Below are positions 3,461 to 47,093 of a stretch of DNA of 64,000 bases, piece after piece. The stretch's first letter is position 1, and each line of letters starts with the position of its first letter. Under the pieces are notes generated by a model. It worked only from the letters and a program-made list of their open reading frames with translations. It was not told the DNA's origin and did not search any database. The stretch lies in NCBI GenBank assembly GCA_038227435.1, contig JBBRPW010000001.1:9632-73631 (forward strand), read 5' to 3'. Origin of the DNA: Minisyncoccia bacterium. GTDB lineage: Bacteria; Patescibacteriota; Minisyncoccia; Phycocordibacterales; CALRBL01. A program made the position numbers and the translations under genes.

Positions 3461-3907
3461 ATGTCAAAAATAACCAAACAATTTTTTAGAGGATTAATTA
3501 CATCTGTTTCTTTGGGAATAATTTTCTGGGCACAAAGTATTGCAACAACTGCAACTGCTCAAACAATTATCATTCAACCCTATGGAGGAACAATTACAAG
3601 TGAAAATCCCGAAGTTTGTTGTAACGGAATTCTTTTTGAAGAAGAAAAGATAAGTGAAAATAGTATCGCCAACTTCTCGGAGGACAAAAAGTTATTTGAT
3701 ACTATTCAGATGGTTAATCAAGCTGAAGGGTCCGGACTTAAATCTGAATATTCAACAAGTAAGAAAACCATAACACTTCTAAATGAAATTCCTTTGATCG
3801 GTATATGTATTACTATTGATTCTGAATGTGAACAACCTAAAAAAGACACAGTTGCTTCTTATGTTTTAATGATGGGAACCACTTTACCAGATCAGGGGTT
3901 AATTTAA
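3461..3907 (+). CDS. Hypothetical secreted protein.
   Basis: 148-aa ORF with a signal-like N-terminus. Confidence 0.45.
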   Translation: MSKITKQFFRGLITSVSLGIIFWAQSIATTATAQTIIIQPYGGTITSENPEVCCNGILFEEEKISENSIANFSEDKKLFDTIQMVNQAEGSGLKSEYSTSKKTITLLNEIPLIGICITIDSECEQPKKDTVASYVLMMGTTLPDQGLI

Positions 3908-8249: not shown

Positions 8250-9779
8250 TTAGGCATTATAAATATGCGATCGATATTGCAAAGATTCTAAGACACAGTT
8301 GTCGTCTACCATTTCTTTATTATCGTAATACGCAATTGTTTCGGCTACTTTTTTAACATTTTCTCTTGATCTTTTAGATAAGGTCATTTTTTTGCACGCA
8401 GTATTCAATATACGTATTGCAGAATCACTAAATTGCAATGACACTCCATCTATTTCGTTTTGTATTTTTAATTTAGTTTTTCGAATATTCTCTTCTAATT
8501 CAGTTCCACATAAAACAGAATCATTTTTTTGAAATAAATTATTTTTTAACCCATTACTATCCCCTCCATCAAGATGTACCCAAATTGGTATTCGATCAAT
8601 TAACGGCTGTGAAATTTTTTTTTGATATTTTGCAATTAAAAATGGATGACACTCACATTTTTTAACTCTGCTTCCATTATTGCCACAAGGACATGGATTC
8701 ATTGTGGCTATGAGCAAAAAATCACAAGGAAGTATTATTGTCTCTTCTCCACGAGCAATACAAATTCTTTTTTCTTCAAGGGGTTGTCTTAGAGCGTTTA
8801 GAGATCTTGAGTCAAATTCGGCTATTTCATCTAATAGTAAAATTCCTTGATGAGCATTTGTTATCTCCCCTATTTTTTTTGATCCTCCAACCATCCCTGC
8901 ATACGAAGCTGTATGATGCGGTGTTCTTATTGGAACTTCCACTAAAGATTCAAGATTCTGAGAAGTGTTGATTGAATTACTTAAGAAATTTAAACGACAT
9001 TTCTCAACCACCTCTTTTTTATTTAAAGAACCAAACAATTCTTTAGCGCAGCTTGAAATCATCGTCTTTCCGCTTCCCGCAGGCCCCCAAAAAACAATAT
9101 GATGTTTTCCTGAAAGAGCTATTGCTAGAGCTCTCTTGGAGAAATTATTATCAGTAATAGTATCTATTTTATATGTGTCATTTCCATGCTGTTTAAATAG
9201 TTTTTCTCCGCTTTTTCCTACCTTAGTTAAAAAAATCTCCCCGTTTAGATTTTTAACCAGTTTTATTTTTTTGAGATGATCAACAATTTCTTTAATATTT
9301 TTTATTGGAAAAATAATAATTCCCTCAATTAATGCAGCTTCTAATTTATTTTCATAAGGAATGTATGCTTCATTTATTTTGTTTCTCACTGCCTCTGTTA
9401 ACATAGTCACAATACCTTTTACCGAACGAACCTCACCATTCATTGAAAGTTCGCCAATAAATATTTTATTTTGCGCCTCAAAATATACTTGTTTTGATGC
9501 AATCATATATCCAACAGCCATGGCTAGATCAAAATACACCCCCTCTTTTTTTAAGTGAGCCGGAGCCAACGCAAATGTTATTTTTTGATTTTGCGTTTTA
9601 GGAGATATAAAACCACTATTTTTTAAAGCTCCAGATATTCGTTCTCTCGCTTCGATAACAGACTTGTCAGTTAATCCAACAATTGTAAATGAATGAAATC
9701 CCCTACTTACATCTACTTCAACTTTTACGATATTACTATGTGGAATTGCCGGCTGTGCACTTAAAATCTCTGTAAACAT
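8250..9779 (-). CDS. comM: YifB/ComM family Mg-chelatase-like AAA+ ATPase.
   Basis: N-terminal Lon-like domain, Walker A FWGPAGSGKT, MCM/chelatase-like C-terminus. Confidence 0.85.
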   Translation of the reverse strand: MFTEILSAQPAIPHSNIVKVEVDVSRGFHSFTIVGLTDKSVIEARERISGALKNSGFISPKTQNQKITFALAPAHLKKEGVYFDLAMAVGYMIASKQVYFEAQNKIFIGELSMNGEVRSVKGIVTMLTEAVRNKINEAYIPYENKLEAALIEGIIIFPIKNIKEIVDHLKKIKLVKNLNGEIFLTKVGKSGEKLFKQHGNDTYKIDTITDNNFSKRALAIALSGKHHIVFWGPAGSGKTMISSCAKELFGSLNKKEVVEKCRLNFLSNSINTSQNLESLVEVPIRTPHHTASYAGMVGGSKKIGEITNAHQGILLLDEIAEFDSRSLNALRQPLEEKRICIARGEETIILPCDFLLIATMNPCPCGNNGSRVKKCECHPFLIAKYQKKISQPLIDRIPIWVHLDGGDSNGLKNNLFQKNDSVLCGTELEENIRKTKLKIQNEIDGVSLQFSDSAIRILNTACKKMTLSKRSRENVKKVAETIAYYDNKEMVDDNCVLESLQYRSHIYNA

Positions 9780-14659: not shown

Positions 14660-16231
14660 TTATTCGACAAAATGTTTATTTCGAATCTTTTTTATTTCTT
14701 CTTGGTTTAATTCATCCATTTTACTCTTCCCTACTAAAGACAAAGCTTTTAATACCTCTATATCTAAATTATTATATTTTTTTACTAGTTCTGATAAGTC
14801 TTTTTTATTATTTAGATGTGGATTTTCAATCACTTCGTTGAAAATAGCTTGAAGAATATAGCCAATTTTGGGTCCTGGGGCTATTTCGAAATCTTTCATT
14901 AAAGTATTTCCGTCAATTTTAAGCATCGATAAGTCAATAGGATCAAGTAGCGCCTCTTCTATCATTGCTTTATATTTCCTTAATCTATAGGGGTTTTCTT
15001 TTGGGCGACCTGTCCCTACCCTATCGCAGATTCTTAGGTTTATAAGGTCCCATATTAGATCTTTTCCAACATTTACGATAATTCTACGTACTGCAGAAAG
15101 TGTAATCGTTTCTGTATCCGAGAAAAACATATGCCACCGCACAAGTTTTATAACCTTGTCAGATGTTTCGTGAGAAACCTTTAAATCTTCCAAAATCCTT
15201 GTTACTAGGCGTGCTCCAACAACTTCGTGCCCATAAAATGTCCAATCATTGTTTTCACGTGAAAATATAGCTGTTTTAGGCTTACCTATGTCATGAAATA
15301 AGGCAGAAAGTCTCACATGTAACATAAATTCTTTATCAGCAGCACACTGAAGACTCCGTAACAGGTGCTCAAATACATCATATGAGTGTGCTTGGTTTTG
15401 CTTAACACCAACAGATTGTTCAATCTCTTTAGAGATATAACTCAAAATACCCAACTTATGAGCCATAAATAGGCCTTGTGAGGGGTTTTTTGACATAATA
15501 ATTTTAAGAAATTCATCTCTAATTCTTTCACGTGAAATTTTTTCAAGTATTTTTGATCTAATCTGGATAGAATCCTGAGTTTCCTGGTTAATCATGAAAC
15601 CGAGCTGGCATGCAAAGCGAATAGCTCTTAAAATTCTTAAACCATCCTCTGCAAATCTTTCGTCAGGATTACCAACGCTTCTAATGACTTTAGCCTTAAT
15701 ATCAGCCATTCCATCGAACAGATCAATAATCTGAGCCGTTTTAAGATCATAAGCTAAGGCGTTAATCGTGAAATCTCTTCGAGACAAGTCTTCGTTAATA
15801 GTATTAGCAAATACTATATTTTCTGGGTGCCTTCCATCTATATAGTTTGTTTCAGATCGATAAGGAGTAATTTGAACAAATTTTGTTGTTTCATCTGAAA
15901 TGTTTTCATGAATAACAGTTACGGTTCCAAATTTCTCTTCAACAAGAGTCTTTGGAAATAAAGAAGCGATCTGAGAGGGAAGAGCATTGGTCGTAATATC
16001 CCAATCTTTAGGAGTTAATCCCAAAAGTAGGTCTCTAACACAGCCACCAACAATAAAAGCCTCGTACCCGGCATTGTACAGCGCAAGGATAGTGTCCTTA
16101 ACAACTTCTGGTATGTTTGAGCCAATATTAATATTAGGGTTGTCCTTTATGCCTGTAGAAGGAATCATGAAGCAAAGTCTAGTATATATTTTGATTATTA
16201 TCCAATCTAGAGTATTATCGGTATCGGACAT
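14660..16231 (-). CDS. cca: CCA-adding enzyme / tRNA nucleotidyltransferase with a C-terminal HD domain. The start is moved to the internal ATG (MSDTDN...) because the longer ORF would overlap tRNA-Arg.
   Basis: IVGGCVRDLLLG...DWDITTN head-domain motif. The HD motif reads LFHDIGK. Confidence 0.85.
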   Translation of the reverse strand: MSDTDNTLDWIIIKIYTRLCFMIPSTGIKDNPNINIGSNIPEVVKDTILALYNAGYEAFIVGGCVRDLLLGLTPKDWDITTNALPSQIASLFPKTLVEEKFGTVTVIHENISDETTKFVQITPYRSETNYIDGRHPENIVFANTINEDLSRRDFTINALAYDLKTAQIIDLFDGMADIKAKVIRSVGNPDERFAEDGLRILRAIRFACQLGFMINQETQDSIQIRSKILEKISRERIRDEFLKIIMSKNPSQGLFMAHKLGILSYISKEIEQSVGVKQNQAHSYDVFEHLLRSLQCAADKEFMLHVRLSALFHDIGKPKTAIFSRENNDWTFYGHEVVGARLVTRILEDLKVSHETSDKVIKLVRWHMFFSDTETITLSAVRRIIVNVGKDLIWDLINLRICDRVGTGRPKENPYRLRKYKAMIEEALLDPIDLSMLKIDGNTLMKDFEIAPGPKIGYILQAIFNEVIENPHLNNKKDLSELVKKYNNLDIEVLKALSLVGKSKMDELNQEEIKKIRNKHFVE

Positions 16232-16251
16232 ATAACAATTAAAAACAATAC

Positions 16252-16326
16252 GCACCCGTGGTGAAATGGATATCACAACAGTCTTCGGAACTGTTTTTGT
16301 AGGTTCGAGTCCTGCCGGGTGCACCA
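16252..16326 (+). tRNA. tRNA-Arg (anticodon TCG), CCA encoded.
   Basis: Manual fold: acceptor GCACCCG/CGGGTGC, D stem GTGA/TCAC, anticodon stem ACAGT/ACTGT with loop CTTCGGA, T arm GTAGG-TTCGAGT-CCTGC, 3' ACCA. Confidence 0.85.
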
Positions 16327-16341
16327 GATAGGGTAGAGTGA

Positions 16342-16412
16342 GCGGGTATGGTTTAGTGGTAGAACACGTCCTTGCCAAGGACGAGTCGAGGGTTCGATTC
16401 CCTCTACCCGCA
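16342..16412 (+). tRNA. tRNA-Gly (anticodon GCC); CCA not encoded.
   Basis: Acceptor GCGGGTA/TACCCGC, anticodon stem CGTCC/GGACG with loop TTGCCAA, T arm AGGGTTCGATTCCCT. Confidence 0.85.
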
Positions 16413-16567
16413 CTAGGAACGAGTATAAAACAAAACGAAGTTTTGTTTTATCGAGTGACGACGTACGGGGAAGACTGGCTCTCCTGAGCCAGGCTTACAA
16501 GCACTAGGAGTTTGTCAAAGACAAACTCCTCAAAATCCCCTAAACTAACGGACCAATATAAGACAAC

Positions 16568-16576
16568 TGTGGATAA
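16568..16576 (-). promoter_or_regulatory. Perfect DnaA-box 9-mer (TGTGGATAA on the + strand).
   Basis: Exact reverse complement of TTATCCACA, lying between tRNA-Gly and the yraN-like gene. Confidence 0.3.
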
Positions 16577-16747
16577 CTACGGGGATATGTGCTTAAAAGA
16601 CATTCTAAATATCCTTATTCTTAGCCAAATGACTTTTATAATCGACATTAAGGAGCACTTTATAAAACATCATTTTTACCCATATATTTATACCTTTTTT
16701 ATAATTTCTTAATTAAAATTTTACGTATAGTATTCCAAAATCGATGA

Positions 16748-17188
16748 ATGAAATTAAAAGACATTGGTAGATATGGGGAAGCTGTCGCTAAATACTATTT
16801 TAAAAATAAGGGATATACATTCCTATCCGCAAACTTTCAAATAAGTGAAGGGGAGATTGATTTAATTTTTAAAAAAGACAATGAAATCGTTGCGATTGAA
16901 GTAAAGGCCTCAGTTATTCCTGGGAATAATGTTTTTAGTTATGAATACAGCCCAATTCAGAAAATAAATAGATTAAAACTTCATAAAATCAAAATTACAT
17001 TGTGTCACTTCATTAAAAAGCATCACCAATATAGATATTTCAACAAAAGGGTAGATTTGATAGGGGTTAGAATTCTTTCACGAGTATCCTCAGAAGATTT
17101 TAAGAATTTGAAAACTATAAGTGAGGCAATTAAGTTAAATCTCTTTAAAAACATCTTTATTACGCATATTCCCAATGTAATTTGGTAA
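16748..17188 (+). CDS. yraN: YraN/UPF0102-family predicted endonuclease.
   Basis: GRYGEAVAKYYFKNKGYTFLSANFQISEGEIDLIF...IVAIEVKA matches the UPF0102 core. Confidence 0.7.
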   Translation: MKLKDIGRYGEAVAKYYFKNKGYTFLSANFQISEGEIDLIFKKDNEIVAIEVKASVIPGNNVFSYEYSPIQKINRLKLHKIKITLCHFIKKHHQYRYFNKRVDLIGVRILSRVSSEDFKNLKTISEAIKLNLFKNIFITHIPNVIW

Positions 17189-17232
17189 AAATTTCATGGC
17201 TTTTTTGAATCATTATGCTATGCTCCTTGTAC

Positions 17233-17305
17233 CGGAGTGTAGTGTAACGGCTAACATTCTTGATTTGGGATCAAGCGACTCAGGGTTCGAATCCCTGCAC
17301 TCCGA
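17233..17305 (+). tRNA. tRNA-Pro (anticodon TGG).
   Basis: Acceptor CGGAGTG/CACTCCG, anticodon stem CTTGA/TCAAG with loop TTTGGGA, T arm CAGGGTTCGAATCCCTG. Confidence 0.85.
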
Positions 17306-17336
17306 CAAGTTTAAGTACTAATAAAGATTCAAAAAT

Positions 17337-17642
17337 ATGGCTTTCATTAAAAATGTGGAAGATTTTAAGTGTGAAAAATGTGGAACCGATATAAAAGGCG
17401 ATGGTTTCACTAACCATTGTCCTAATTGTTTATATAGTAAGCACGTCGACAACGATCCGGGGGATAGGAAAAATACATGTGGTGGCTTAATGAAGCCAAT
17501 TGCCTATATTAAAATGAAAGAGAAGGAAAAAATTACTCATCAATGTTTAGTTTGCGGCGAAGAGAAAAATAATAAAGTTTGCCTAAATGATAGTAGGGAA
17601 GCAATGGTTACTATGATTAAAAATGGAATTGAAGAGAATTAA
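17337..17642 (+). CDS. Small Cys-rich zinc-ribbon protein, RNHCP-domain-like.
   Basis: CEKCG...FTNHCPNCLYSKHVD...CGG...CLVCG; the xNHCP motif resembles the RNHCP family. Confidence 0.5.
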   Translation: MAFIKNVEDFKCEKCGTDIKGDGFTNHCPNCLYSKHVDNDPGDRKNTCGGLMKPIAYIKMKEKEKITHQCLVCGEEKNNKVCLNDSREAMVTMIKNGIEEN

Positions 17643-17709
17643 TTCCAAATAAAGCTCTGGATTGAAATATCTCTAGTATTTGCTACTATCTTCATACAAA
17701 CAAATAAAT

Positions 17710-17780
17710 GCGGGATTGGTTTAGTGGTAGAATGACTGCCTTCCAAGCAGTAGACAAGGGTTCGATTCCCTTATCCCGCA
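17710..17780 (+). tRNA. tRNA-Gly (anticodon TCC).
   Basis: Acceptor GCGGGAT/ATCCCGC, anticodon stem ACTGC/GCAGT with loop CTTCCAA, T arm AGGGTTCGATTCCCT. Confidence 0.85.
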
Positions 17781-39589: not shown

Positions 39590-39649
39590 AATAAGGAAGC
39601 AATAAAGAACCCATCAAGTTAAACTAAATTTAATCAAAACAATATTTAC

Positions 39650-40873: not shown

Positions 40874-40926
40874 GTGATTTAAAATCTATTTTTCTTTTTT
40901 GGGTAGGTGTGTAGTATTATTGATAT

Positions 40927-41676
40927 ATGTTTGAAAAATATCTTCAAGAATTAGGATTATCCGATAAGGAGGCAAGTGTATATATTTCACTTCTCCAGGT
41001 AGATAACGACTCAGTACTCGATTTGTCTAAAAAAACAAAAATTAATAGAACCACTATCTACCCAGTCCTTGAAAGCTTGGCCAAAAAAGGTCTTATTAGC
41101 GAAGCACAAGTTGATAAAAAGATTAGATATCACGCCGAACCACCCGAACGATTAGAAACATATGTTGAGCGGCAAAAAACAATGCTTCAAGAGCATTCAA
41201 ATCGATTAAAAGATGTAATTCCTCAGTTAAAAAGTATTCAGAGGGAAACTGGGGAAAAACCAATGGTTAAGTATTTTGAAGGTAGACAGGGTGCGATCAG
41301 TTCTCTTGAAGAGTTTTATAATTCAATCGGAAAAGGTGGCACTGCATATTTAATTTATCCAAAAGATGCAATAAAAAATATCTTCAATGAAAAAGAAATT
41401 GAAAAATATCGATCAATACGCCTTAAAAGGGAAATAAAGACAAAAGTAATAAGTACTTCGTCAAAAAACGACATAATTTCTGATTCAACAGGTAATCGAA
41501 TACAAATTGACGGAGAAAAGTATCCCATCACTTCGGATATTGCTATTTACGAAGATAAAGTAAGGGTTACTATTTTGGGGAAGTCTTTAGCAGCATTTTC
41601 AATAAAGAGTCAGGATCTTGCTGATACACTTCGTAGTTTATTTGATTTGGTATTTGATCTATCAAAAAATAAATAA
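40927..41676 (+). CDS. TrmB-family HTH transcriptional regulator.
   Basis: N-terminal LGLSDKEASVYISLL...INRTTIYPVLESLAKKGLI winged-helix region typical of TrmB. Confidence 0.6.
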   Translation: MFEKYLQELGLSDKEASVYISLLQVDNDSVLDLSKKTKINRTTIYPVLESLAKKGLISEAQVDKKIRYHAEPPERLETYVERQKTMLQEHSNRLKDVIPQLKSIQRETGEKPMVKYFEGRQGAISSLEEFYNSIGKGGTAYLIYPKDAIKNIFNEKEIEKYRSIRLKREIKTKVISTSSKNDIISDSTGNRIQIDGEKYPITSDIAIYEDKVRVTILGKSLAAFSIKSQDLADTLRSLFDLVFDLSKNK

Positions 41677-41696
41677 GAGACTTATATAATAAAAGA

Positions 41697-41738
41697 TACC
41701 CCGATCGCACAACGTGCTGCGATCGGGGTATTTGGTTT
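41697..41738 (+). terminator. Rho-independent terminator ACCCCGATCGCAcaacgtgcTGCGATCGGGGT + TTTGGTTT.
   Basis: 12-bp perfect GC-rich stem followed by a T-rich tail. Confidence 0.6.
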
Positions 41739-42326
41739 AGACCCCGTGGTCTTTTACTCCGAGAACGATAAGGTATTGCCCTTCGCGTTCTCGAACGATT
41801 TCATTGGCCTACCCCTCGGGGTAGAAAATAAGGTGTGTTTACTAGTCAGACATACTATTTTTCCTTCGGTCGGGGTTCTCTCTAACAAGGTTTGGATTTT
41901 GAGGACAGCTTTTAGCTACTAGTCCCAGCCAACAGCCGATTCGGGCGCTGTTGGCTGGGACTTTCACTTTCGGCTAGTCGCCCATATTACCTCCTTGTTA
42001 AGGTTCGGGAATCGTTCATAAGCAAGAGCGCTAATGAATTTCCAAATAAAATTTAGCATAATAAAATTGGTCTGTCAACATGTTTTAACTAAATTGAGTA
42101 TATTTGATCAATTTTATATAAAATAAGGCTATGAATATAGCTTCAATAGTGTTTTTACTTGTTATTGTCGGTTTTTGTGTTTTGACACCTGAAAAATACT
42201 ACAAAACAAATATTTTTTAATGCAATTAATGTAGTTTTATGTCATATCTAATTTACATATATTGTATATAATATCCTTATTTATCAATACTATAATGGAA
42301 TATTAAATTTAATCTGTCATAAACAC

Positions 42327-42354
42327 TTGACAAAAATATAAATATCCGTATTAT
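42327..42354 (+). promoter_or_regulatory. Sigma70-like promoter TTGACA-16 nt-TATTAT driving the island's + strand transcription.
   Basis: Consensus -35 and near-consensus -10 with 16-nt spacing, about 200 nt upstream of the first island ORF. Confidence 0.4.
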
Positions 42355-42478
42355 CTTTCTCAGTTAGAACTTTTCACCTCAACCCCCAAAGAACAATGCG
42401 TTACTACGTGCTCCCCGACGGGACCGTGGTGATCAACCCCTCTGACGCCTACTAAGGCGTTACGGGATGATCCCACTT

Positions 42479-42530
42479 CTGCGGCTTAGGCACGCGGGGG
42501 AATAATGCACCCTGGCAACAGAATCGCATC
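42479..42530 (+). repeat. Repeat family R1, copy a (CTGCGGCTTAGGCACGCGGGG...CCTGGCAACAGAAT), in the 5' leader of island ORF-A.
   Basis: A 21/21 identical block plus a 14-nt block shared with copy b at 43777-43828. Confidence 0.55.
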
Positions 42531-42561
42531 CACTAAAACATCACCCTAATTTTTTACAACT

Positions 42562-42843
42562 ATGAAAAAGATCGTGATCGGAATGATGGTCGTTCTCGCT
42601 CTACTCTTGTCGTTTGTTGCAGGTGTCTTCTACGGCACCAACGCAACTATCGCCAAGATGGAATTGCTGGAAACCCCCAGAGGCCGCATTCTTTACTACT
42701 TCATTCCGAATACATCTGCTTCGACAGAAATTTATTCGCTTGATAGTGGAGAAGATGCTGATCTCTACGAGGATTCAACACAAATTCCTGACGAAGACGT
42801 GACTGAGAGGAAAGACTCTCTGAAGGACGACACTAACCTTTAA
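42562..42843 (+). CDS. Island ORF-A: small membrane-anchored protein with an acidic C-terminal tail.
   Basis: 93-aa ORF. TM helix IVIGMMVVLALLLSFVAGVFYG. The last 14 codons and the stop lie inside repeat R2a. Confidence 0.4.
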   Translation: MKKIVIGMMVVLALLLSFVAGVFYGTNATIAKMELLETPRGRILYYFIPNTSASTEIYSLDSGEDADLYEDSTQIPDEDVTERKDSLKDDTNL

Positions 42844-42897
42844 TTCAAAAGTGTTTATTTTTGCGACCGTTTTAAATGGTTGGTTGGCGTGCAGCGC
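42801..42897 (+). repeat. Repeat family R2, copy a (97 nt), immediately upstream of HHR1.
   Basis: 94 of 97 positions identical to copy b at 45769-45866. Contains hairpin GAGAG-gaaaga-CTCTC. Confidence 0.7.
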
Positions 42898-42935
42898 TAA
42901 GAGAAAACTTTAAATCCTAACTATAAAAAGTTAGA

Positions 42936-42987
42936 TCTGTCTCGAAATGTAATTTCGACTGATGAGCTCTAGAGAGCGAAACAGAAA
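42936..42987 (+). ncRNA. Hammerhead ribozyme, type III topology (HHR1).
   Basis: TCTGTC|TCGAAATgtaATTTCGA-CTGATGA-GCTCtagaGAGC-GAAA-CAGA. All core nucleotides present (C3-A9, G12-A14, A15.1-U16.1, GUC cleavage triplet). Three stems fold as required. Confidence 0.75.
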
Positions 42988-43436
42988 GTACTTTAAAACC
43001 AAGAAAAATAATAAAAGTTAAATTCGTCTGCACTTGAGAGTGTTTTTAAAAATATTCTCACGTGCAGGCGAAAGTAGCGCCAAAGCATGTGATCGGTAGT
43101 ACACATTTAAATCTTGAGTGAGTGTCTCGGATTTAAGTGGAGTTGTACTACGTATTAATTCATCACCAAAAAAATGATTAGTGGGATGTTCTGATTGTTC
43201 TCGTACGCCTCGCGAGAGACCAACAGTCAAAATGTCACATCATTTGAGTAGGGACAAGCAGTTCGTTGCTGTGCACCGAACTTTGATGAATTATGGCTGT
43301 GAACGATCTGAGGTGAGTACCGCAAGGTAACTCAGTTTGATCTAGTAATAGTTATGGGGAAAGCGCATAAGGCTTGGTCGCCAAGTGTGTATTACCTGCT
43401 ACAAAATTTCTAAACCTCAACCAAAAAAGAATTACT

Positions 43437-43772
43437 ATGGCACATTACAGTACTTTTATTTTTCAGTTGCCAGGATGTCCCGAGATTTATATGAGTACTC
43501 GGTACAACATTATTCAGGACTTTGATTGCATTCGAAATAAGTTTGGAAAGGGGTTGATTAAGTTCAAACCTTTCTACAAGCCTGATCGAGTGCAATTTAC
43601 TCCTCCGAGTAATGGAGAAAAGCATCCTTGGGTATTGCTGACTAAATATCAGCGTAGGAAGATTCAAACCTTCCTCAATGTGGTCTACCGAAAGGGAAAC
43701 CACAGGGTACCTCGGAGATGGCGCAAGTTCGTAAAGAACGACGGCGTCTTTCCAAAGGAGTGTCTCGACTGA
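43437..43772 (+). CDS. Island ORF-B: small basic protein (R/K-rich C-terminus).
   Basis: 111-aa ORF from ATGGCACATTAC; no homologue recognised. Confidence 0.35.
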   Translation: MAHYSTFIFQLPGCPEIYMSTRYNIIQDFDCIRNKFGKGLIKFKPFYKPDRVQFTPPSNGEKHPWVLLTKYQRRKIQTFLNVVYRKGNHRVPRRWRKFVKNDGVFPKECLD

Positions 43773-43776
43773 GCAA

Positions 43777-43828
43777 CTGCGGCTTAGGCACGCGGGGTAC
43801 ACATACTACCTGGCAACAGAATTGTATG
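43777..43828 (+). repeat. Repeat family R1, copy b. It follows the ORF-B stop and precedes HHR2.
   Basis: Shares CTGCGGCTTAGGCACGCGGGG and CCTGGCAACAGAAT blocks with R1a. Confidence 0.55.
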
Positions 43829-43857
43829 AAACTGACTAGTAATTATTTACTAGTCAC

Positions 43858-43909
43858 TCTGTCTCGAAATGTAATTTCGACTGATGAGCTCTAGAGAGCG
43901 AAACAGAAA
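43858..43909 (+). ncRNA. Hammerhead ribozyme, type III (HHR2), 52/52 identical to HHR1.
   Basis: Same sequence as HHR1, preceded by the 9-bp palindrome GACTAGTAA-ttat-TTACTAGTC. Confidence 0.75.
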
Positions 43910-44304
43910 TACATTAAAAATAAAATAATTTCTTTACACCTCATCCGGCGTTTATTTGCGGCACGAAAATAACCACGCAAACAAAAAATGTGGAAACCCG
44001 CTAGACGCTGGTTGAGGTGTAATGAACAAAAAATATAGGTTGCTAGTTAACCTGATCCGAGGAGCTCTGGTTTTCCATAAGGAAAACTAAAACTTTCGGG
44101 CTTTAGTGGGGCAAGCAACGTAACGCCGGATGCGTACGTGTGAGGCCAAAAGCACAAAAACTACTTGTTTGCCCAGCTATCGGGGAATAAGCGTCGTTCG
44201 TGGTACGGCGTTATGAGCATAAGTATCAAAATCTCCGAAGCCATTCGCCCTTAAGGGTGAAATGGTTCTAGTGAGGAATTTTGAGAACGTTCTCTAACAA
44301 CCAC
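43910..44304 (+). ncRNA. Roughly 395-nt ORF-free, highly structured spacer between HHR2 and HHR4. Candidate large structured RNA of unknown class.
   Basis: Long-range inverted repeats TTACACCTCA/TGAGGTGTAA and CATCCGGCGTT/AACGCCGGATG. Local hairpins GTTTTCC-ataa-GGAAAAC and CCATTCGCCC-ttaa-GGGTGAAATGG. No ORF over 40 codons on the + strand. Confidence 0.35.
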
Positions 44305-44357
44305 TTTGTTTATCGATGTGTTTCGATACTGAAGAGCTCAAAAGAGCGAAACAGAAG
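44305..44357 (+). ncRNA. Hammerhead-like ribozyme variant (HHR4): CTGAAGA core (position 7 = A), GUU cleavage triplet, short stem III.
   Basis: TTTGTT|TATCGAtgtgttTCGATA-CTGAAGA-GCTCaaaaGAGC-GAAA-CAGAAG. Position 7 is tolerant and U17 is permitted but weaker. Confidence 0.5.
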
Positions 44358-44393
44358 ATCTTTAAATTTCAGCAACTTCAACCCCCTAAAAAA

Positions 44394-44699
44394 ATGCAAA
44401 ACCCATATGGTTCGGAGAAGCAGTTGGAAACCACCGAACAGCAGATCGACCGCCGTGTCGCGCTCAGTGTCCTCGAAGTGAGCTACCATTTTTGGGGCGC
44501 ACTTCGGGGTGGTGGCGAACGGGCCGCTGCGAACCTTTTGAACAGTTTGAAAGGTGCAGCACCACGCGGCTACTACTTCACTGTCTCGGCAGATAGGGAG
44601 TGGCGTCCGCGTGCAAACAAAGACGGAACGTTCGAGTTCCGCCGCCTGTTTCAGCCCCGAACCAACACTGTCGCCATCATCGGATTGGCAAGACGATAG
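44394..44699 (+). CDS. Island ORF-C: hypothetical protein.
   Basis: 101-aa ORF starting at ATGCAAAACCCA, directly downstream of HHR4. Confidence 0.35.
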   Translation: MQNPYGSEKQLETTEQQIDRRVALSVLEVSYHFWGALRGGGERAAANLLNSLKGAAPRGYYFTVSADREWRPRANKDGTFEFRRLFQPRTNTVAIIGLARR

Positions 44700-44719
44700 T
44701 GCCGGAAGGGTTGAAACAC

Positions 44720-44830
44720 ACGTTAAGAGTCACCGTAAAAAACTCTGGTCTGATCCACTAACAACGATCACTCGTTTATCGTATGCGAGCTTCAAAAAAC
44801 GTTCGGGTCCGCCCGTGATAGCGGCGTCGG
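44720..44830 (+). repeat. Repeat family R3, copy a (about 110 nt), followed by hairpin GGGGAAtttatTTCCCC.
   Basis: About 93% identical to copy b at 46431-46540. Some differences are compatible with conserved pairing (AACGA/TCGTT versus AATGA/TTGTT). Confidence 0.65.
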
Positions 44831-44916
44831 TAGGGGAATTTATTTCCCCACTTTATTGAGCCTGTCACATTCGGTGATTGGTTCATCAAGTTCGTTCTTT
44901 TCAAAAAAATAAAAAT

Positions 44917-45330
44917 ATGAAACTTAACGTCAAGGCTATCCGTAGTTTTGTGCTTAGTCAGGTAGTGGACAAGGAAGAGTCAGAAGCACTCATCTTTTAT
45001 TTGGCTGGCATCAATGCCGAATTCTATCTCGTAGATCCTCACACCTGCGGAGAAGAAGCAGGAGAGATTGGCTTCATGGGTTTCAACTTCACCGACAAGG
45101 TGAATGATGCAATGAATGCTGGTCTTTGGGCTGTGATTTACGACGATGGGCGCGATTATGCTTACCATAAGTACTTCCTTTTCGAGGAAGACGCTAAAAG
45201 TTTTGCAAATCGGGTTGGTGGAGGCTTATTGAAGTACACCAACACTGCAAATCGGCTGAAAGTTATTGCCCACTTTAGAAAGTTGGGCTTAATCGAAGAA
45301 GTTCCTGAAGAAGAAGGAATTCTCGAATAA
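44917..45330 (+). CDS. Island ORF-D: hypothetical acidic protein.
   Basis: 137-aa ORF from ATGAAACTTAAC. Confidence 0.4.
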   Translation: MKLNVKAIRSFVLSQVVDKEESEALIFYLAGINAEFYLVDPHTCGEEAGEIGFMGFNFTDKVNDAMNAGLWAVIYDDGRDYAYHKYFLFEEDAKSFANRVGGGLLKYTNTANRLKVIAHFRKLGLIEEVPEEEGILE

Positions 45331-45463
45331 CTTTAAGTCAATTCATATACGTTCTGCATAACGTAAAAAATGTAGCTGTTTTGCTCAATATGCGTGCAAG
45401 AAATTGCATGTCGACATATTGGCTTCTTCAGTGAAAAAAGAAGGTAAGAAAGGAGGATCAACA

Positions 45464-45760
45464 ATGATCATCGACCTTTCTCTTCGTAATGAGCGCCTGT
45501 ACAAGGGTTGCGAAATTACGGAGGTGGCAGGCCGGCTGAACTTGGTTACTCCAGTTGCTGATGCAGTTAATATCGTTGGCCGCAACGCCAATGGGTTGAT
45601 TGCAGAAGTTGCTGCGAGTGATCGGAGCGAAGTCGAGCTTACGGGTCCGATGGCGGTTTGGTCTTACTTGATCGTTTTCCACGCTGTGGTTCACGCCTTT
45701 TCGAAGGTGTACTACAACGATGGGAAAGGTCGGGTACTGATCGCCGCCCACGGCGCCTGA
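45464..45760 (+). CDS. Island ORF-E: hypothetical protein preceded by a strong Shine-Dalgarno.
   Basis: AAAGGAGGatcaacaATG gives a canonical SD at optimal spacing. 98-aa ORF (MIIDLSLRNERLYKG...). Native genes in this window generally lack an SD. Confidence 0.5.
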   Translation: MIIDLSLRNERLYKGCEITEVAGRLNLVTPVADAVNIVGRNANGLIAEVAASDRSEVELTGPMAVWSYLIVFHAVVHAFSKVYYNDGKGRVLIAAHGA

Positions 45761-45768
45761 TGCCATCT

Positions 45769-45866
45769 GACTGAGAGGAAAGACTCTCTGAAGGACGACA
45801 CTAACCTTTAATTCAGAAGTGTCTATTTTTGCGACCGTTTTAAATGGTTGGTTGGCGTGCATCGCT
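45769..45866 (+). repeat. Repeat family R2, copy b, non-coding here, immediately upstream of HHR3.
   Basis: Near-identical to R2a. Confidence 0.7.
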
Positions 45867-45890
45867 GACGGATAGATGTTCTATCCGTCA

Positions 45891-45942
45891 TCTGTCACAG
45901 GGTATTACCTTGTCTGATGAGTTCAAAAGAACGAAACAGAAG
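45891..45942 (+). ncRNA. Hammerhead ribozyme, type III (HHR3), a sequence variant of HHR1/2.
   Basis: TCTGTC|ACAGGGTattACCTTGT-CTGATGA-GTTCaaaaGAAC-GAAA-CAGAAG. Full conserved core. Preceded by hairpin GACGGATAG-atgtt-CTATCCGTC. Confidence 0.7.
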
Positions 45943-45970
45943 ATCTTTCAAAACTCCACAAATAATTTTT

Positions 45971-46204
45971 ATGAATAATCATTCGAAAGAATTGGTATGT
46001 GTTCGAGTGATTAATGTATGCGCATCCATTAAAGGCTCTTTTGGATTAGGTCACTTTATAAAAGTCGATCTGTCTGGAGTCAGTGATTGGTATATATACT
46101 GCTCAAAAACTAAACCAATTGTCGGACAAGAAATTTCCATGTTTCTTACTATGTACGGCAAATGGACATGTCTCGATGACAGAGACAATGTCGAATCATT
46201 TTAG
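45971..46204 (+). CDS. Island ORF-F: small Cys-containing hypothetical protein directly downstream of HHR3.
   Basis: 77-aa ORF from ATGAATAATCAT. Confidence 0.3.
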   Translation: MNNHSKELVCVRVINVCASIKGSFGLGHFIKVDLSGVSDWYIYCSKTKPIVGQEISMFLTMYGKWTCLDDRDNVESF

Positions 46205-46430
46205 TCGAATTAAAACCCTATGATCAACATCATCAAATCTACTCGCTATAAGGTGAGTGGCTTCATTCGTAACTGCGTTAAAAACCCTCGCACGAGCTGG
46301 AAGCTGCGGAAGCAATTGGCTTCTCGCAGCATGCGTCGCCTCGATCGAAAGGTGATCGCTGCAACGGATGTTGAGGAGCATTCGTCGTGTGTCGTATACA
46401 ATAACTTCCTGGGCTATCCGTAGCAAGGAA

Positions 46431-46540
46431 ACGTTAAGAGTCAACGTAAAAAACTCTGGTCTGATCCACCAACAATGATCACTTGTTTATCGTATGCGAG
46501 CAACAAAAAACGTTCGGGTCCGCCCGTAATAGCGGCGTGG
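46431..46540 (+). repeat. Repeat family R3, copy b, ending at the island's terminal terminator.
   Basis: See R3a. Confidence 0.65.
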
Positions 46541-46542
46541 TT

Positions 46543-46570
46543 AAGAGGAACATCAGTTCCTCTTTTTTTA
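46543..46570 (+). terminator. Rho-independent terminator AAGAGGAAcatcagTTCCTCTT + T8.
   Basis: 8-bp stem followed by a T run. Confidence 0.6.
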
Positions 46571-46615
46571 TTTCTAAATCAAATTAAGTTAAAATTTATA
46601 AACCTACTTATTAAT

Positions 46616-47053
46616 TTATTTATCGAGCTCTGAAATTATTTTTTGAGCAATATCTTCTTTTTCTCCATCTTTATAAATAATATGTTCACCATATCTCATA
46701 CTCACTCCTTTATAACGAGGGATTAAATGTGCGTGTATATGTAATATTTCCTGGCCTCCATATGAGCGATTGTTAATGAGTAGATTTACTCCATCAAGTT
46801 TAAGAGCATTCTCTAAAACGTTTGCCACCCTTTTAACTCCTTTCATCATTGTTCCAAAAAGTTCTGTGTCGATCTGAAATATGTCGTCAGCATGTGTTTT
46901 TGGAATAATAATTGTATGTCCTAAGGCAAGAGGATTAATATCGAGGAATACAAAGACATCTGCGTCTTCATAAAGCTTTGTTGTGTTAACTTCTCCTGTA
47001 ATCATTTTGCAAAAGATGCAATCTTTATGGGTTAATTCGTTATTCATGGCCAT
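46616..47053 (-). CDS. HIT-family (histidine triad) nucleotide hydrolase.
   Basis: HIHAHLIP histidine triad motif. Confidence 0.85.
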   Translation of the reverse strand: MAMNNELTHKDCIFCKMITGEVNTTKLYEDADVFVFLDINPLALGHTIIIPKTHADDIFQIDTELFGTMMKGVKRVANVLENALKLDGVNLLINNRSYGGQEILHIHAHLIPRYKGVSMRYGEHIIYKDGEKEDIAQKIISELDK

Positions 47054-47093
47054 ATTTTAACACGTATACGGGCTAGCATGATACAATCTTTTC

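Follow-up and report, generated by a model that had tools for sequence, protein, structure and literature searches.

Clusters of hammerhead ribozymes in bacterial DNA have been known since 2011, when it was reported that in prophage regions they often flank one gene or a small block of genes; ardA of Agrobacterium tumefaciens, for instance, is surrounded by a triple hammerhead, and other clusters are present in Clostridium scindens and Azorhizobium caulinodans (Perreault et al. 2011, PMC3088659). In that study, transcripts of ~2 kb from three bacteria were cleaved in vitro as expected, and the processing of long transcripts into gene-length mRNAs was proposed. Circular or spliced products were sought and none found, and regulation of some phage hammerheads was suggested as a possibility (PMC3088659). 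The gene associations that hammerhead and twister ribozymes share are still unexplained (PMC6765202, PMC5737381), and the purpose of bacterial and phage hammerheads, as well as their gene company, remains an open question (PMC6765202). Here, we analyse a 64-kb stretch of DNA (contig JBBRPW010000001.1 of a Minisyncoccia bacterium, positions 9,632 to 73,631; hereafter the window), in which an island at 42370-46570 carries four co-oriented hammerhead ribozymes (HHR1 to HHR4) within 3 kb, delimiting units of zero to three open reading frames (ORFs).

The layout of this island is a member of the populous class known since 2011, which is common in phage contigs, and the island is best explained as an array of small, phage-like accessory genes that was acquired horizontally and lies beside a gene for a TrmB-like regulator. 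Like the published clusters, it places several co-oriented hammerheads at the gene boundaries of one transcription unit, has a foreign-looking composition and a variable, mostly unknown accessory cargo that includes a defence-related gene, and suggests the same role, i.e. the cutting of a polycistronic RNA into gene-length pieces. Unlike those clusters, it resides in what appears to be a small, low-G+C genome resembling the candidate phyla radiation (CPR), without adjacent integrase or phage genes. Moreover, its hammerheads are set in conserved RNA modules (an element termed R2 upstream, a short box and a long hairpin downstream), and one of the inter-ribozyme units lacks an ORF. To the extent that the two reviews summarise twister and hammerhead gene neighbourhoods, self-cleaving ribozymes there likewise recur near particular gene classes and in mobile-element-like regions (PMC6765202, PMC5737381). 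With four ribozymes, well-defined ends predicted for their products and conserved RNA modules flanking the predicted cleavage sites, the locus represents a compact test case, and a Csx3/Crn3-like protein, ORF-E, provides it with a neighbour of assayable biochemistry.

Results and Discussion

Four hammerhead ribozymes in an island of foreign composition

All four hammerheads are of type III and lie on the + strand (Table 1). In each copy the core CUGA(U/A)GA ... GAAA is complete and the cleavage triplet is GUC or GUU; the stems comprise 5-7, 4 and 5 bp, with helices I and II closed by loops and helix III open. The stem III strands (U)CUGU / ACAGA are common to all four, and HHR1 and HHR2, whose cores are identical, form a 63-nt direct repeat of 92% identity at a distance of 922 nt. 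A descriptor scan for type III hammerheads recovered three sites that are also found with Rfam and, in addition, 44305-44355 (CUGAAGA core, GUU triplet), and no further type III hammerhead on either strand of the 64 kb. Hereby, the expectation from dinucleotide shuffles is 0.25 hits per window and 0.003 per island. When the four copies were aligned with six hammerheads from other genomes, 100% of the cells paired across 15 pairs, nine of which, all in stems I and II, show compensatory changes; since this ten-copy alignment was fitted to the model, it is biased towards the structure. A covariance model of our own, built from seven hammerhead copies, scores HHR1 with 76.8 bits and HHR4 with 69.5 bits, both being seed sequences of that model. 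The four + strand hammerheads claimed in the original prediction, which had been made from the sequence without database searches, are thus borne out, with complete cores and covarying stems.

A search of 41500-46800 on both strands with the Rfam model Hammerhead_3 (RF00008) returned HHR1, HHR2 and HHR3 at E-values of 8e-7 to 3e-6, which refer to this 5.3-kb search, and did not report HHR4 at E<=10. All three scores are below the Rfam gathering score of 48.5 bits, which is why a gathering-threshold scan of the whole window listed four tRNAs only. The RF00008 alignments show a four-position deletion in the stem II loop and leave the outermost stem III positions unpaired, whereas the catalytic core matches throughout. 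Over the same 5.3 kb, models of twister, pistol, hatchet, HDV-like, GOLLD, ROOL, HEARO, raiA and tmRNA gave chance-level matches only at E<=10, and ARAGORN found nothing.

The jump in G+C that had been noted by eye is confirmed by windowed analysis. The island has a G+C content of 0.441, compared to a mean of 0.358 outside (sd 0.017, maximum 0.391, 101 equal-sized windows), i.e. it lies +4.9 sd from the rest of the 64-kb window. Third-position G+C amounts to 0.46-0.63 in the island ORFs, with ORF-F alone at 0.33, compared to 0.24-0.27 in the PGK, TrmB-like and RecJ genes. Composition and codon use therefore look foreign, in agreement with the acquired, island-like character originally proposed. 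All ORFs and ribozymes are co-oriented between one strong promoter-like site and one terminator. The island is flanked by the PGK and TrmB-like genes on one side and by HIT, RecJ and RNase H genes on the other. This is not a prophage context, and no island ORF matches a PHROG; the more specific identity as a phage satellite or plasmid is not supported by any mobility or replication gene.

Table 1. Features of the island and its TrmB-like neighbour, in window coordinates
Feature	Position	Strand	Evidence and remarks
TrmB-like regulator gene	40927..41676	+	Pfam TrmB, E 4e-16
Sigma-70-like promoter	42327..42354	+	TTGACA-16-TATTAT, 11/12 consensus positions, best site in region
Structured G+C-rich leader, includes R1a (42479-42529)	42365..42561	+	fold z -4.44
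ORF-A, 93 aa, N-terminal hydrophobic segment	42562..42843	+	no family above cut-off
R2a, pseudoknotted element 5' of HHR1	42800..42898	+	97% identity to R2b; nhmmer E 3e-20
HHR1, type III	42934..42987	+	RF00008 40.3 bits, E 2.3e-6; descriptor scan; predicted cleavage after C42941
Long hairpin after HHR1 and leader box	43023..43072	+	inverted repeat I1, 30-nt arms, 87% complementary
ORF-B, 111 aa, basic	43437..43772	+	no homologue in fetched loci
R1b repeat, then hairpin and HHR2	43777..43827	+	82% identity to R1a
HHR2, type III	43856..43909	+	RF00008 41.9 bits, E 8e-7; core same as HHR1; predicted cleavage after C43863
447-nt ribozyme-bounded RNA (HHR2 to HHR4 sites)	43864..44310	+	no + strand ORF >29 aa
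HHR4, type III	44303..44357	+	N7 = A, GUU site; descriptor scan; predicted cleavage after U44310
ORF-C, 101 aa, orphan	44394..44699	+	only itself among 5.8 billion clusters
R3a repeat (44720-44832) and weak terminator-like hairpin (44833-44849)	44720..44849	+	repeat search, fold comparison
ORF-D, 137 aa, orphan	44917..45330	+	only itself in both protein libraries (5.8 and 1.8 billion clusters)
ORF-E, 98 aa, Csx3/Crn3-like, strong Shine-Dalgarno AAGGAGGA	45464..45760	+	profile match, predicted fold, neighbours
R2b, pseudoknotted element 5' of HHR3	45768..45866	+	R2a repeat; conserved in block of locus L022
HHR3, type III	45889..45942	+	RF00008 40.1 bits, E 2.7e-6; descriptor scan; predicted cleavage after C45896
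ORF-F, 77 aa	45971..46204	+	no homologue in fetched loci
ORF-G, 67 aa, basic	46220..46423	+	no family match
R3b repeat	46431..46543	+	92% identity to R3a
Intrinsic terminator	46543..46572	+	9-bp stem (hairpin 46543-46564), then TTTTTATTT T run

A predicted polycistronic RNA and its cleavage products

The four intact hammerheads would fit the processing of a polycistronic RNA. One RNA of ~4.2 kb may run from the promoter at 42327-42354 to the terminator at ~46570 and would be cut by the ribozymes after 42941, 43863, 44310 and 45896. Five products are predicted, namely the leader with ORF-A and R2a, ORF-B with R1b (922 nt), a non-coding RNA of 447 nt, ORF-C, -D and -E with R2b, and ORF-F and -G with R3b. 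Hereby, a downstream piece would have a 5'-OH end and continue with the folded body of the ribozyme, the box AGTTCTTTcAAAA and, in many cases, a long hairpin; an upstream piece would carry an R2 pseudoknot or R1, then a hairpin, and end with a 2',3'-cyclic phosphate. In view of how bacterial RNA decays in general, such ends would be shielded from 5'-end-dependent and 3'-exonucleolytic degradation. They could uncouple the stability and translation of neighbouring cistrons, so that half-life and translation rate would be set separately for each of them. The repeated non-coding joints may in addition act as recombination points for the swapping of cassettes. The in vitro cleavage of clustered bacterial hammerheads is a precedent for this model (PMC3088659), which as a whole we regard as reasonably probable.

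The non-coding spacers are far more stable than shuffled sequences, with fold z values of -6.75, -6.91 and -4.44, and their predicted folds are branched rather than rod-like. For the 447-nt unit at 43864-44310, z is -6.75 on the + strand vs -4.10 on the - strand. A related Parcubacteria locus (L022) contains two comparable ORF-less, ribozyme-bounded segments of ~510 and 330 nt (z -8.7 and -7.0). These units suggest an alternative fate, in which an RtcB-type ligase, or else the ribozyme, joins the ends of inter-ribozyme RNAs, so that circles of 922 nt (with ORF-B) and 447 nt (non-coding) would arise that resemble retrozymes or viroid-like RNAs. The spacing and 92% identity of HHR1 and HHR2 are indeed reminiscent of retrozyme-flanking hammerheads, and because the stem III strands are shared among all four copies, the joined ends of any fragment would rebuild a complete hammerhead. 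The similarity to retrozymes and viroid-like RNAs thus extends to type III hammerheads that bound units of 0.4-0.9 kb as direct repeats, to an end chemistry suited to ligation and to the restoration of the hammerhead upon circularisation, and the structured, ORF-less 447-nt fragment with its two counterparts in L022 would suit this reading. However, the element belongs to a larger operon encoded in the DNA of a bacterial chromosome, the island contains neither a ligase nor a reverse transcriptase, no target-site duplication is seen at it, and the branched folds differ from the rod-like form. Moreover, the common stem III may merely reflect recent duplication, and the earlier search for circular products, as mentioned above, was unsuccessful (PMC3088659). 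We consider circularisation quite unlikely and retain processing into linear pieces as the preferred model.

Conserved RNA modules flanking the predicted cleavage sites

The three repeat families of the original prediction, R1, R2 and R3, are all present (82%, 97% and 92% identity, respectively). It had further been claimed that a near-identical 3' element precedes each hammerhead, which holds for HHR1 and HHR3, both following R2; HHR2 follows R1b instead, and HHR4 a 395-nt spacer. Neither the R3 copies nor R1a are followed by a hammerhead.

R2 is an element of ~100-120 nt located just 5' of hammerheads. We found it eight times in six loci, one example being a divergent copy before the second hammerhead of L022. 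From 5' to 3' it consists of a small hairpin, an H-type pseudoknot (S1 GAAGG/CCUUY; S2 of 6 bp), P3, P5 and P4, after which stem III of the hammerhead begins. The P5 hairpin UUGGCGUGYAKCGCU is nearly invariant and the P4 hairpin is variable; invariant loop and junction nucleotides are GAAGGA, AACCUU and UUGGCGUGYAKCGCU. In the alignment of the eight examples 97.5% of the cells pair and nine of 20 pairs are changed on both sides, values neither of which is reached by any of 5000 shuffles, in an alignment that is small and hand-made and hence favours the model. No Rfam model matched R2 in the search of 41500-46800. R2 begins 0-25 nt past the upstream stop codon, except for ORF-A, whose last 14 codons and stop codon lie within R2a, and the R2-hammerhead module is found after mutually unrelated ORFs. 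This conserved pseudoknotted element may be new.

Its position directly 5' of a hammerhead in every example, the pseudoknot with invariant loops and junctions and covarying stems, and the lack of an Rfam match would suit a sensor, i.e. an aptamer or protein-binding site which renders cleavage after ORF-A and ORF-E conditional; regulation of this kind is the possibility raised for some phage hammerheads (PMC3088659). Against a sensor, the variable P4 hairpin always intervenes between R2 and stem III, no alternative pairing between R2 and the ribozyme core is seen, and two of the four hammerheads here are devoid of R2. A start 0-25 nt behind the stop codon, with ORFs that are unrelated to each other, is just as compatible with a 3'-end or termination-linked role. 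Conditional cleavage through R2 appears decidedly improbable, and in the following R2 is viewed as a conserved module at the 3' ends of the predicted pieces.

Downstream of every hammerhead a box resembling AGTTCTTTcAAAA is found, which is often followed by a long, near-perfect hairpin such as that at 43023-43072; analogous hairpins come after hammerheads in L022 and in a WWE3 locus (L029). The box also occurs after promoters (window 42362-42376; L029 and L028) and, without a ribozyme, before ORF-D. Its consensus is (A)AGTTCTTT(C/G)AAAA, with copies in the window at 42362-42376, 42986-43000, 43908-43922, 44356-44370, 44885-44910 and 45941-45955, and in L022 at 820-835 and 3570-3590. It may act as an RNA leader element or as a DNA site. 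The leader box was also tried as an extension of stem III and rejected, the pairing being inconsistent between copies.

ORF-E, a divergent Csx3/Crn3-like protein

As predicted, ORF-E is preceded by a strong Shine-Dalgarno sequence (AAGGAGGA in 45444-45463). The motif is absent at the three host genes PGK (39630-39649), TrmB-like (40907-40926) and RecJ (47074-47093), which is a further sign of outside origin. ORF-E has homologues in at least 700 clusters (55-79% identity, with the closest relative at 79%) from Parcubacteria, Saccharibacteria, Moraniibacteria, WWE3, Acidobacteria, deltaproteobacterial bins and 12 IMG/VR viral contigs. The AlphaFold model is confident (pLDDT 94.8) and shows a Csx3-like fold. 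By sequence, the similarity is marginal: the PADLOC Csx3 profile matches residues 52-96 (E 3.4e-4), and hhalign aligns the same stretch to Csx3 of Archaeoglobus fulgidus (AfCsx3; E 0.014), the sequence of which was checked against PDB 6vjg and 3wzh. A profile search of the PDB sequences gave no match, and a fold search against viral structures yielded nothing significant.

The residues conserved in Csx3 are H57, H60, D69, R71 and H80, among which D69, R71 and H80 matter for ring-nuclease activity (PMC7371418). In the hhalign alignment, the family-invariant residues H73, D86 and H96 of ORF-E correspond to H57, D69 and H80, and the near-invariant position 88 (Arg in ~90% of the family, Lys here) corresponds to R71. 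The C-terminal half of ORF-E thus resembles Csx3/Crn3 of A. fulgidus (AF1864, PMC7371418), a ring nuclease belonging to type III CRISPR systems, at G45, W50, H57, D69, R71 and H80, and the homologues of ORF-E adjoin Cmr genes, TM-SAVED and Csx23. In contrast to Csx3/Crn3, the N-terminal half cannot be aligned to AfCsx3 by sequence, the essential H60 is replaced, with a His one residue later, the family is unusually conserved (~70% identity across phyla), and it mostly occurs without Cas10 nearby, including in the 12 viral contigs.

Genes for Cmr1 and Cmr4 lie beside ORF-E homologues in five Acidobacteria loci (L034, L035, L041, L047, L049), a TM-SAVED protein in four CPR loci (PADLOC 5e-16), Csx23 in one locus (2e-23) and a radical-SAM protein with weak pVip similarity in six loci. 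In the window, no Cmr, TM-SAVED or Csx23 gene is seen adjoining ORF-E. We therefore best read ORF-E as a divergent Csx3/Crn3-like protein; by analogy, the neighbours of its homologues agree with a cyclic-oligoadenylate role. ORF-E would most likely bind or degrade cyclic oligoadenylate, like Csx3/Crn3. Together with the ardA precedent in A. tumefaciens, ORF-E leads us to regard the island as probably a defence or counter-defence island.

The CPR loci L024, L025, L027-L029, L036, L039 and L040 combine the ORF-E family with a TrmB-like regulator, radical-SAM, TM-SAVED or Csx23. Within ~6 kb of the ORF-E homologues in CPR loci no Cas10 is visible, and these neighbourhoods may represent a cyclic-nucleotide signalling module without a visible synthase. 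In two Saccharibacteria loci (L025 1-228, L027 1-142) the 16S rRNA gene has its 3' end ~1.5-3.7 kb upstream of the ORF-E homologue.

TrmB-like homologues are found 0.2-2.5 kb from ORF-E homologues in 11 other loci, or 0.2-3.8 kb in 12 loci when the window is included. The TrmB-like gene may hence be a partner of the island rather than a neutral flank, and because it repeatedly accompanies ORF-E homologues, the island is not cleanly bounded by it. The empty site that had been envisaged, with the TrmB-like gene next to the HIT gene, is doubtful for the same reason.

The remaining ORFs

Seven candidate ORFs were found instead of the six originally counted, the extra one being ORF-G (46220-46423). 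The starts of ORF-C and ORF-F are likely 44394 and 45971, because the ATGs at 44316 and 45917 fall inside hammerheads. When the seven ORFs were searched against Pfam, PHROGs, NCBIfam and PADLOC, the Csx3 match of ORF-E was the only one. The other six ORFs match no family, but the earlier statement that none of the ORFs resembles a known family does not hold for ORF-E, and the content cannot be called poor in protein families, as ORF-E belongs to the large Csx3/Crn3-like family. For ORF-D, a single-sequence AF2 model was uninformative (pLDDT 41.7). A sub-threshold match of ORF-A residues 1-21 (42562-42624) to the AimP lysogeny pheromone (NCBIfam E 1.5e-4; 21.8 bits vs a cut-off of 35) was rejected; it covers the hydrophobic N-terminus only and is probably a generic signal-peptide artefact.

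In principle, the island could be wholly non-coding except for ORF-E, with the small ORFs as chance frames in structured RNAs. ORF-C and ORF-D have no counterpart among billions of proteins, the degree of structure in the non-coding parts is unusual, and a Shine-Dalgarno site is missing from ORFs A, B, C, D, F and G. However, the three host genes likewise lack one, GC1 exceeds GC2 in ORFs A-E, as in coding sequence, and ORF-B carries a long antisense ORF, which is frequent in real genes. R2 and R3 moreover start just past stop codons, and one ORF per interval is seen in related islands, too. The purely non-coding alternative is scarcely credible.

Alternatively, the island might be the decaying remnant of a phage or other element, whose hammerheads and repeats are relics without a present role. 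Such decay would account for the lack of mobility genes, for ORFs that mostly have no detectable homologue, for the 3' end of ORF-A being overwritten by R2 and for box-like sequences upstream of ORF-D that come without a ribozyme. It is at odds with four catalytic cores that are all complete and differ between copies in a compensatory manner, with an intact ORF-E that is 79% identical to its closest relative, with R3 copies whose differences are located in predicted loops or yield G-U pairs, and with an intact promoter and terminator. We regard a mere relic as very improbable and continue with the reading of the island as an acquired array of accessory genes.

Related loci in viral contigs, CPR genomes and metagenomes

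A search of IMG/VR for the core of this hammerhead subtype gave 108 stretches, and our covariance model returned 116 hammerheads in 80 IMG/VR loci, of which 113 were parsed into 61 loci. In 31 of these 61 viral loci there are two to four hammerheads, always on one strand, with a median spacing of ~1 kb and usually one ORF per interval. The sampled viral cargo is of the accessory type (DUF3150, a DUF2201 metallopeptidase-VWA protein, a GGACT protein, Kyano_Gp96). Given these clustered viral loci and the description of 2011 (PMC3088659), the architecture is not new, and the arrangement cannot be called undescribed. No match to the ORFs and spacers of the window was found in the 80 viral hammerhead loci or in seven metagenome loci. 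In viral contigs, a short R2 pattern matched 71 times, which is near a rough chance estimate, with none confirmed by nhmmer, and an R3 pattern did not match.

Among ~45 loci with ORF-E homologues, four contain hammerheads, i.e. the window, L022 (four copies), L029 and L044 (both WWE3), and in all of them the hammerheads lie downstream of the ORF-E homologue on the same strand. For 15 loci carrying ORF-E homologues, an Rfam scan at the gathering threshold detected no ribozyme. Conservation between the window and L022 is confined to the block that runs from the Shine-Dalgarno sequence through ORF-E and R2 to the hammerhead (45422-45941 vs L022 318-819, 73% identical). When metagenomes were scanned for the invariant stretch of R2 with a hammerhead core behind it, seven loci were returned, and R2 together with a hammerhead was confirmed in L235, L236, L237/L238 and L239. 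These have no ORF-E homologue, and R2 there follows unrelated small ORFs. Their surroundings are of the housekeeping type, with HU, RNase Y and ClpP in L236, L20 and NDK in L235, and ClpP and trigger factor in L239. These three, two of which have raised G+C, are, like L022, islands with orphan small ORFs between housekeeping genes. For a 114-aa ORF of L236, a guessed similarity to DUF1874/AcrIII-1 was not supported by Pfam.

The WWE3 locus L029 is syntenic with L028 (80-89% identical), from which it differs by a segment (L029 6364-8025 vs L028 6016-6370). This extra segment comprises a basic ORF of 47 aa, a hammerhead, a leader and an ORF of 264 aa, and the leader (box and hairpin) forms a direct repeat of 95 nt on either side of it; in its place, L028 has a single leader copy and a microsatellite. 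The difference at a repeated leader is direct evidence of cassette gain or loss at leaders, which agrees with the mosaic-like way in which R1, R2, R3 and hammerheads are combined in the window.

Several points weigh against the reading of the island as an acquired, ribozyme-processed array with a ring-nuclease-like cargo. At the RNA level, the hammerheads score under the Rfam gathering cut-off and HHR4 goes unreported by Rfam, and the internal terminator-like hairpin at 44833-44849, after R3a, may divide the predicted transcription unit. With regard to acquisition, no integrase, phage structural or replication gene lies in or adjoining the island, and no empty site was found, as exact look-ups of the HIT and TrmB proteins matched only contigs of the same sample. 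Concerning the cargo, ORF-E has no Csx3-family Pfam match at E<=1, and the essential H60 of Csx3 aligns with Val76, the invariant His77 being one residue off. Only four of ~45 loci have both the ribozyme and the ring-nuclease-like gene, so that one does not require the other. For six ORFs out of seven no homologue is detectable, for ORF-C and ORF-D in large protein databases and for ORF-A, -B, -F and -G in family libraries and fetched loci, and they may not all be coding; for this reason the defence or counter-defence cargo is the weakest point.

The core of the original prediction, an acquired operon that ribozymes would process, is reasonable. What the locus adds to the known class is modest and consists of the R2-hammerhead composite motif, the ribozyme-bounded non-coding RNAs, an apparent presence in CPR-like chromosomes without nearby phage genes, and the link to a widespread Csx3/Crn3-like family with a TrmB-like partner. 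A bolder interpretation would take R2 and the hammerhead as an undescribed composite device (a regulated ribozyme or a 3'-end/termination module) and, at the same time, the ORF-less RNAs (447 nt here; ~510 and 330 nt in L022) as a new, possibly circular class, both in CPR defence or counter-defence islands with a Crn3-like enzyme; this combination we judge rather unlikely. If R2 or the ribozyme-bounded RNAs are functional, new RNA classes would result and ribozyme processing would be tied to cyclic-nucleotide immune signalling. If they are not, the locus is one further case of a pattern known since 2011.

Other observations in the window

The four tRNA genes are located on the + strand at 16252-17780. 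Two of them are overlapped by a mechanically called minus-strand ORF (14660-16378), which is unlikely to be a gene. A search of the 64-kb window for CRISPR-like arrays gave none. Divergent from the island promoter, the minus strand of 41690-42078 contains a candidate non-coding RNA of ~310-350 nt, without a match to Rfam, tRNA or tmRNA. It has a promoter-like site of its own at 42078-42050 (TTGACA-17-TAAATT with TG), and its 3' end is formed by a hairpin (41731-41696) and a U run. The fold z value of this candidate is -7.99 on the minus strand, and that of the + strand over 41735-42030 is -5.27.

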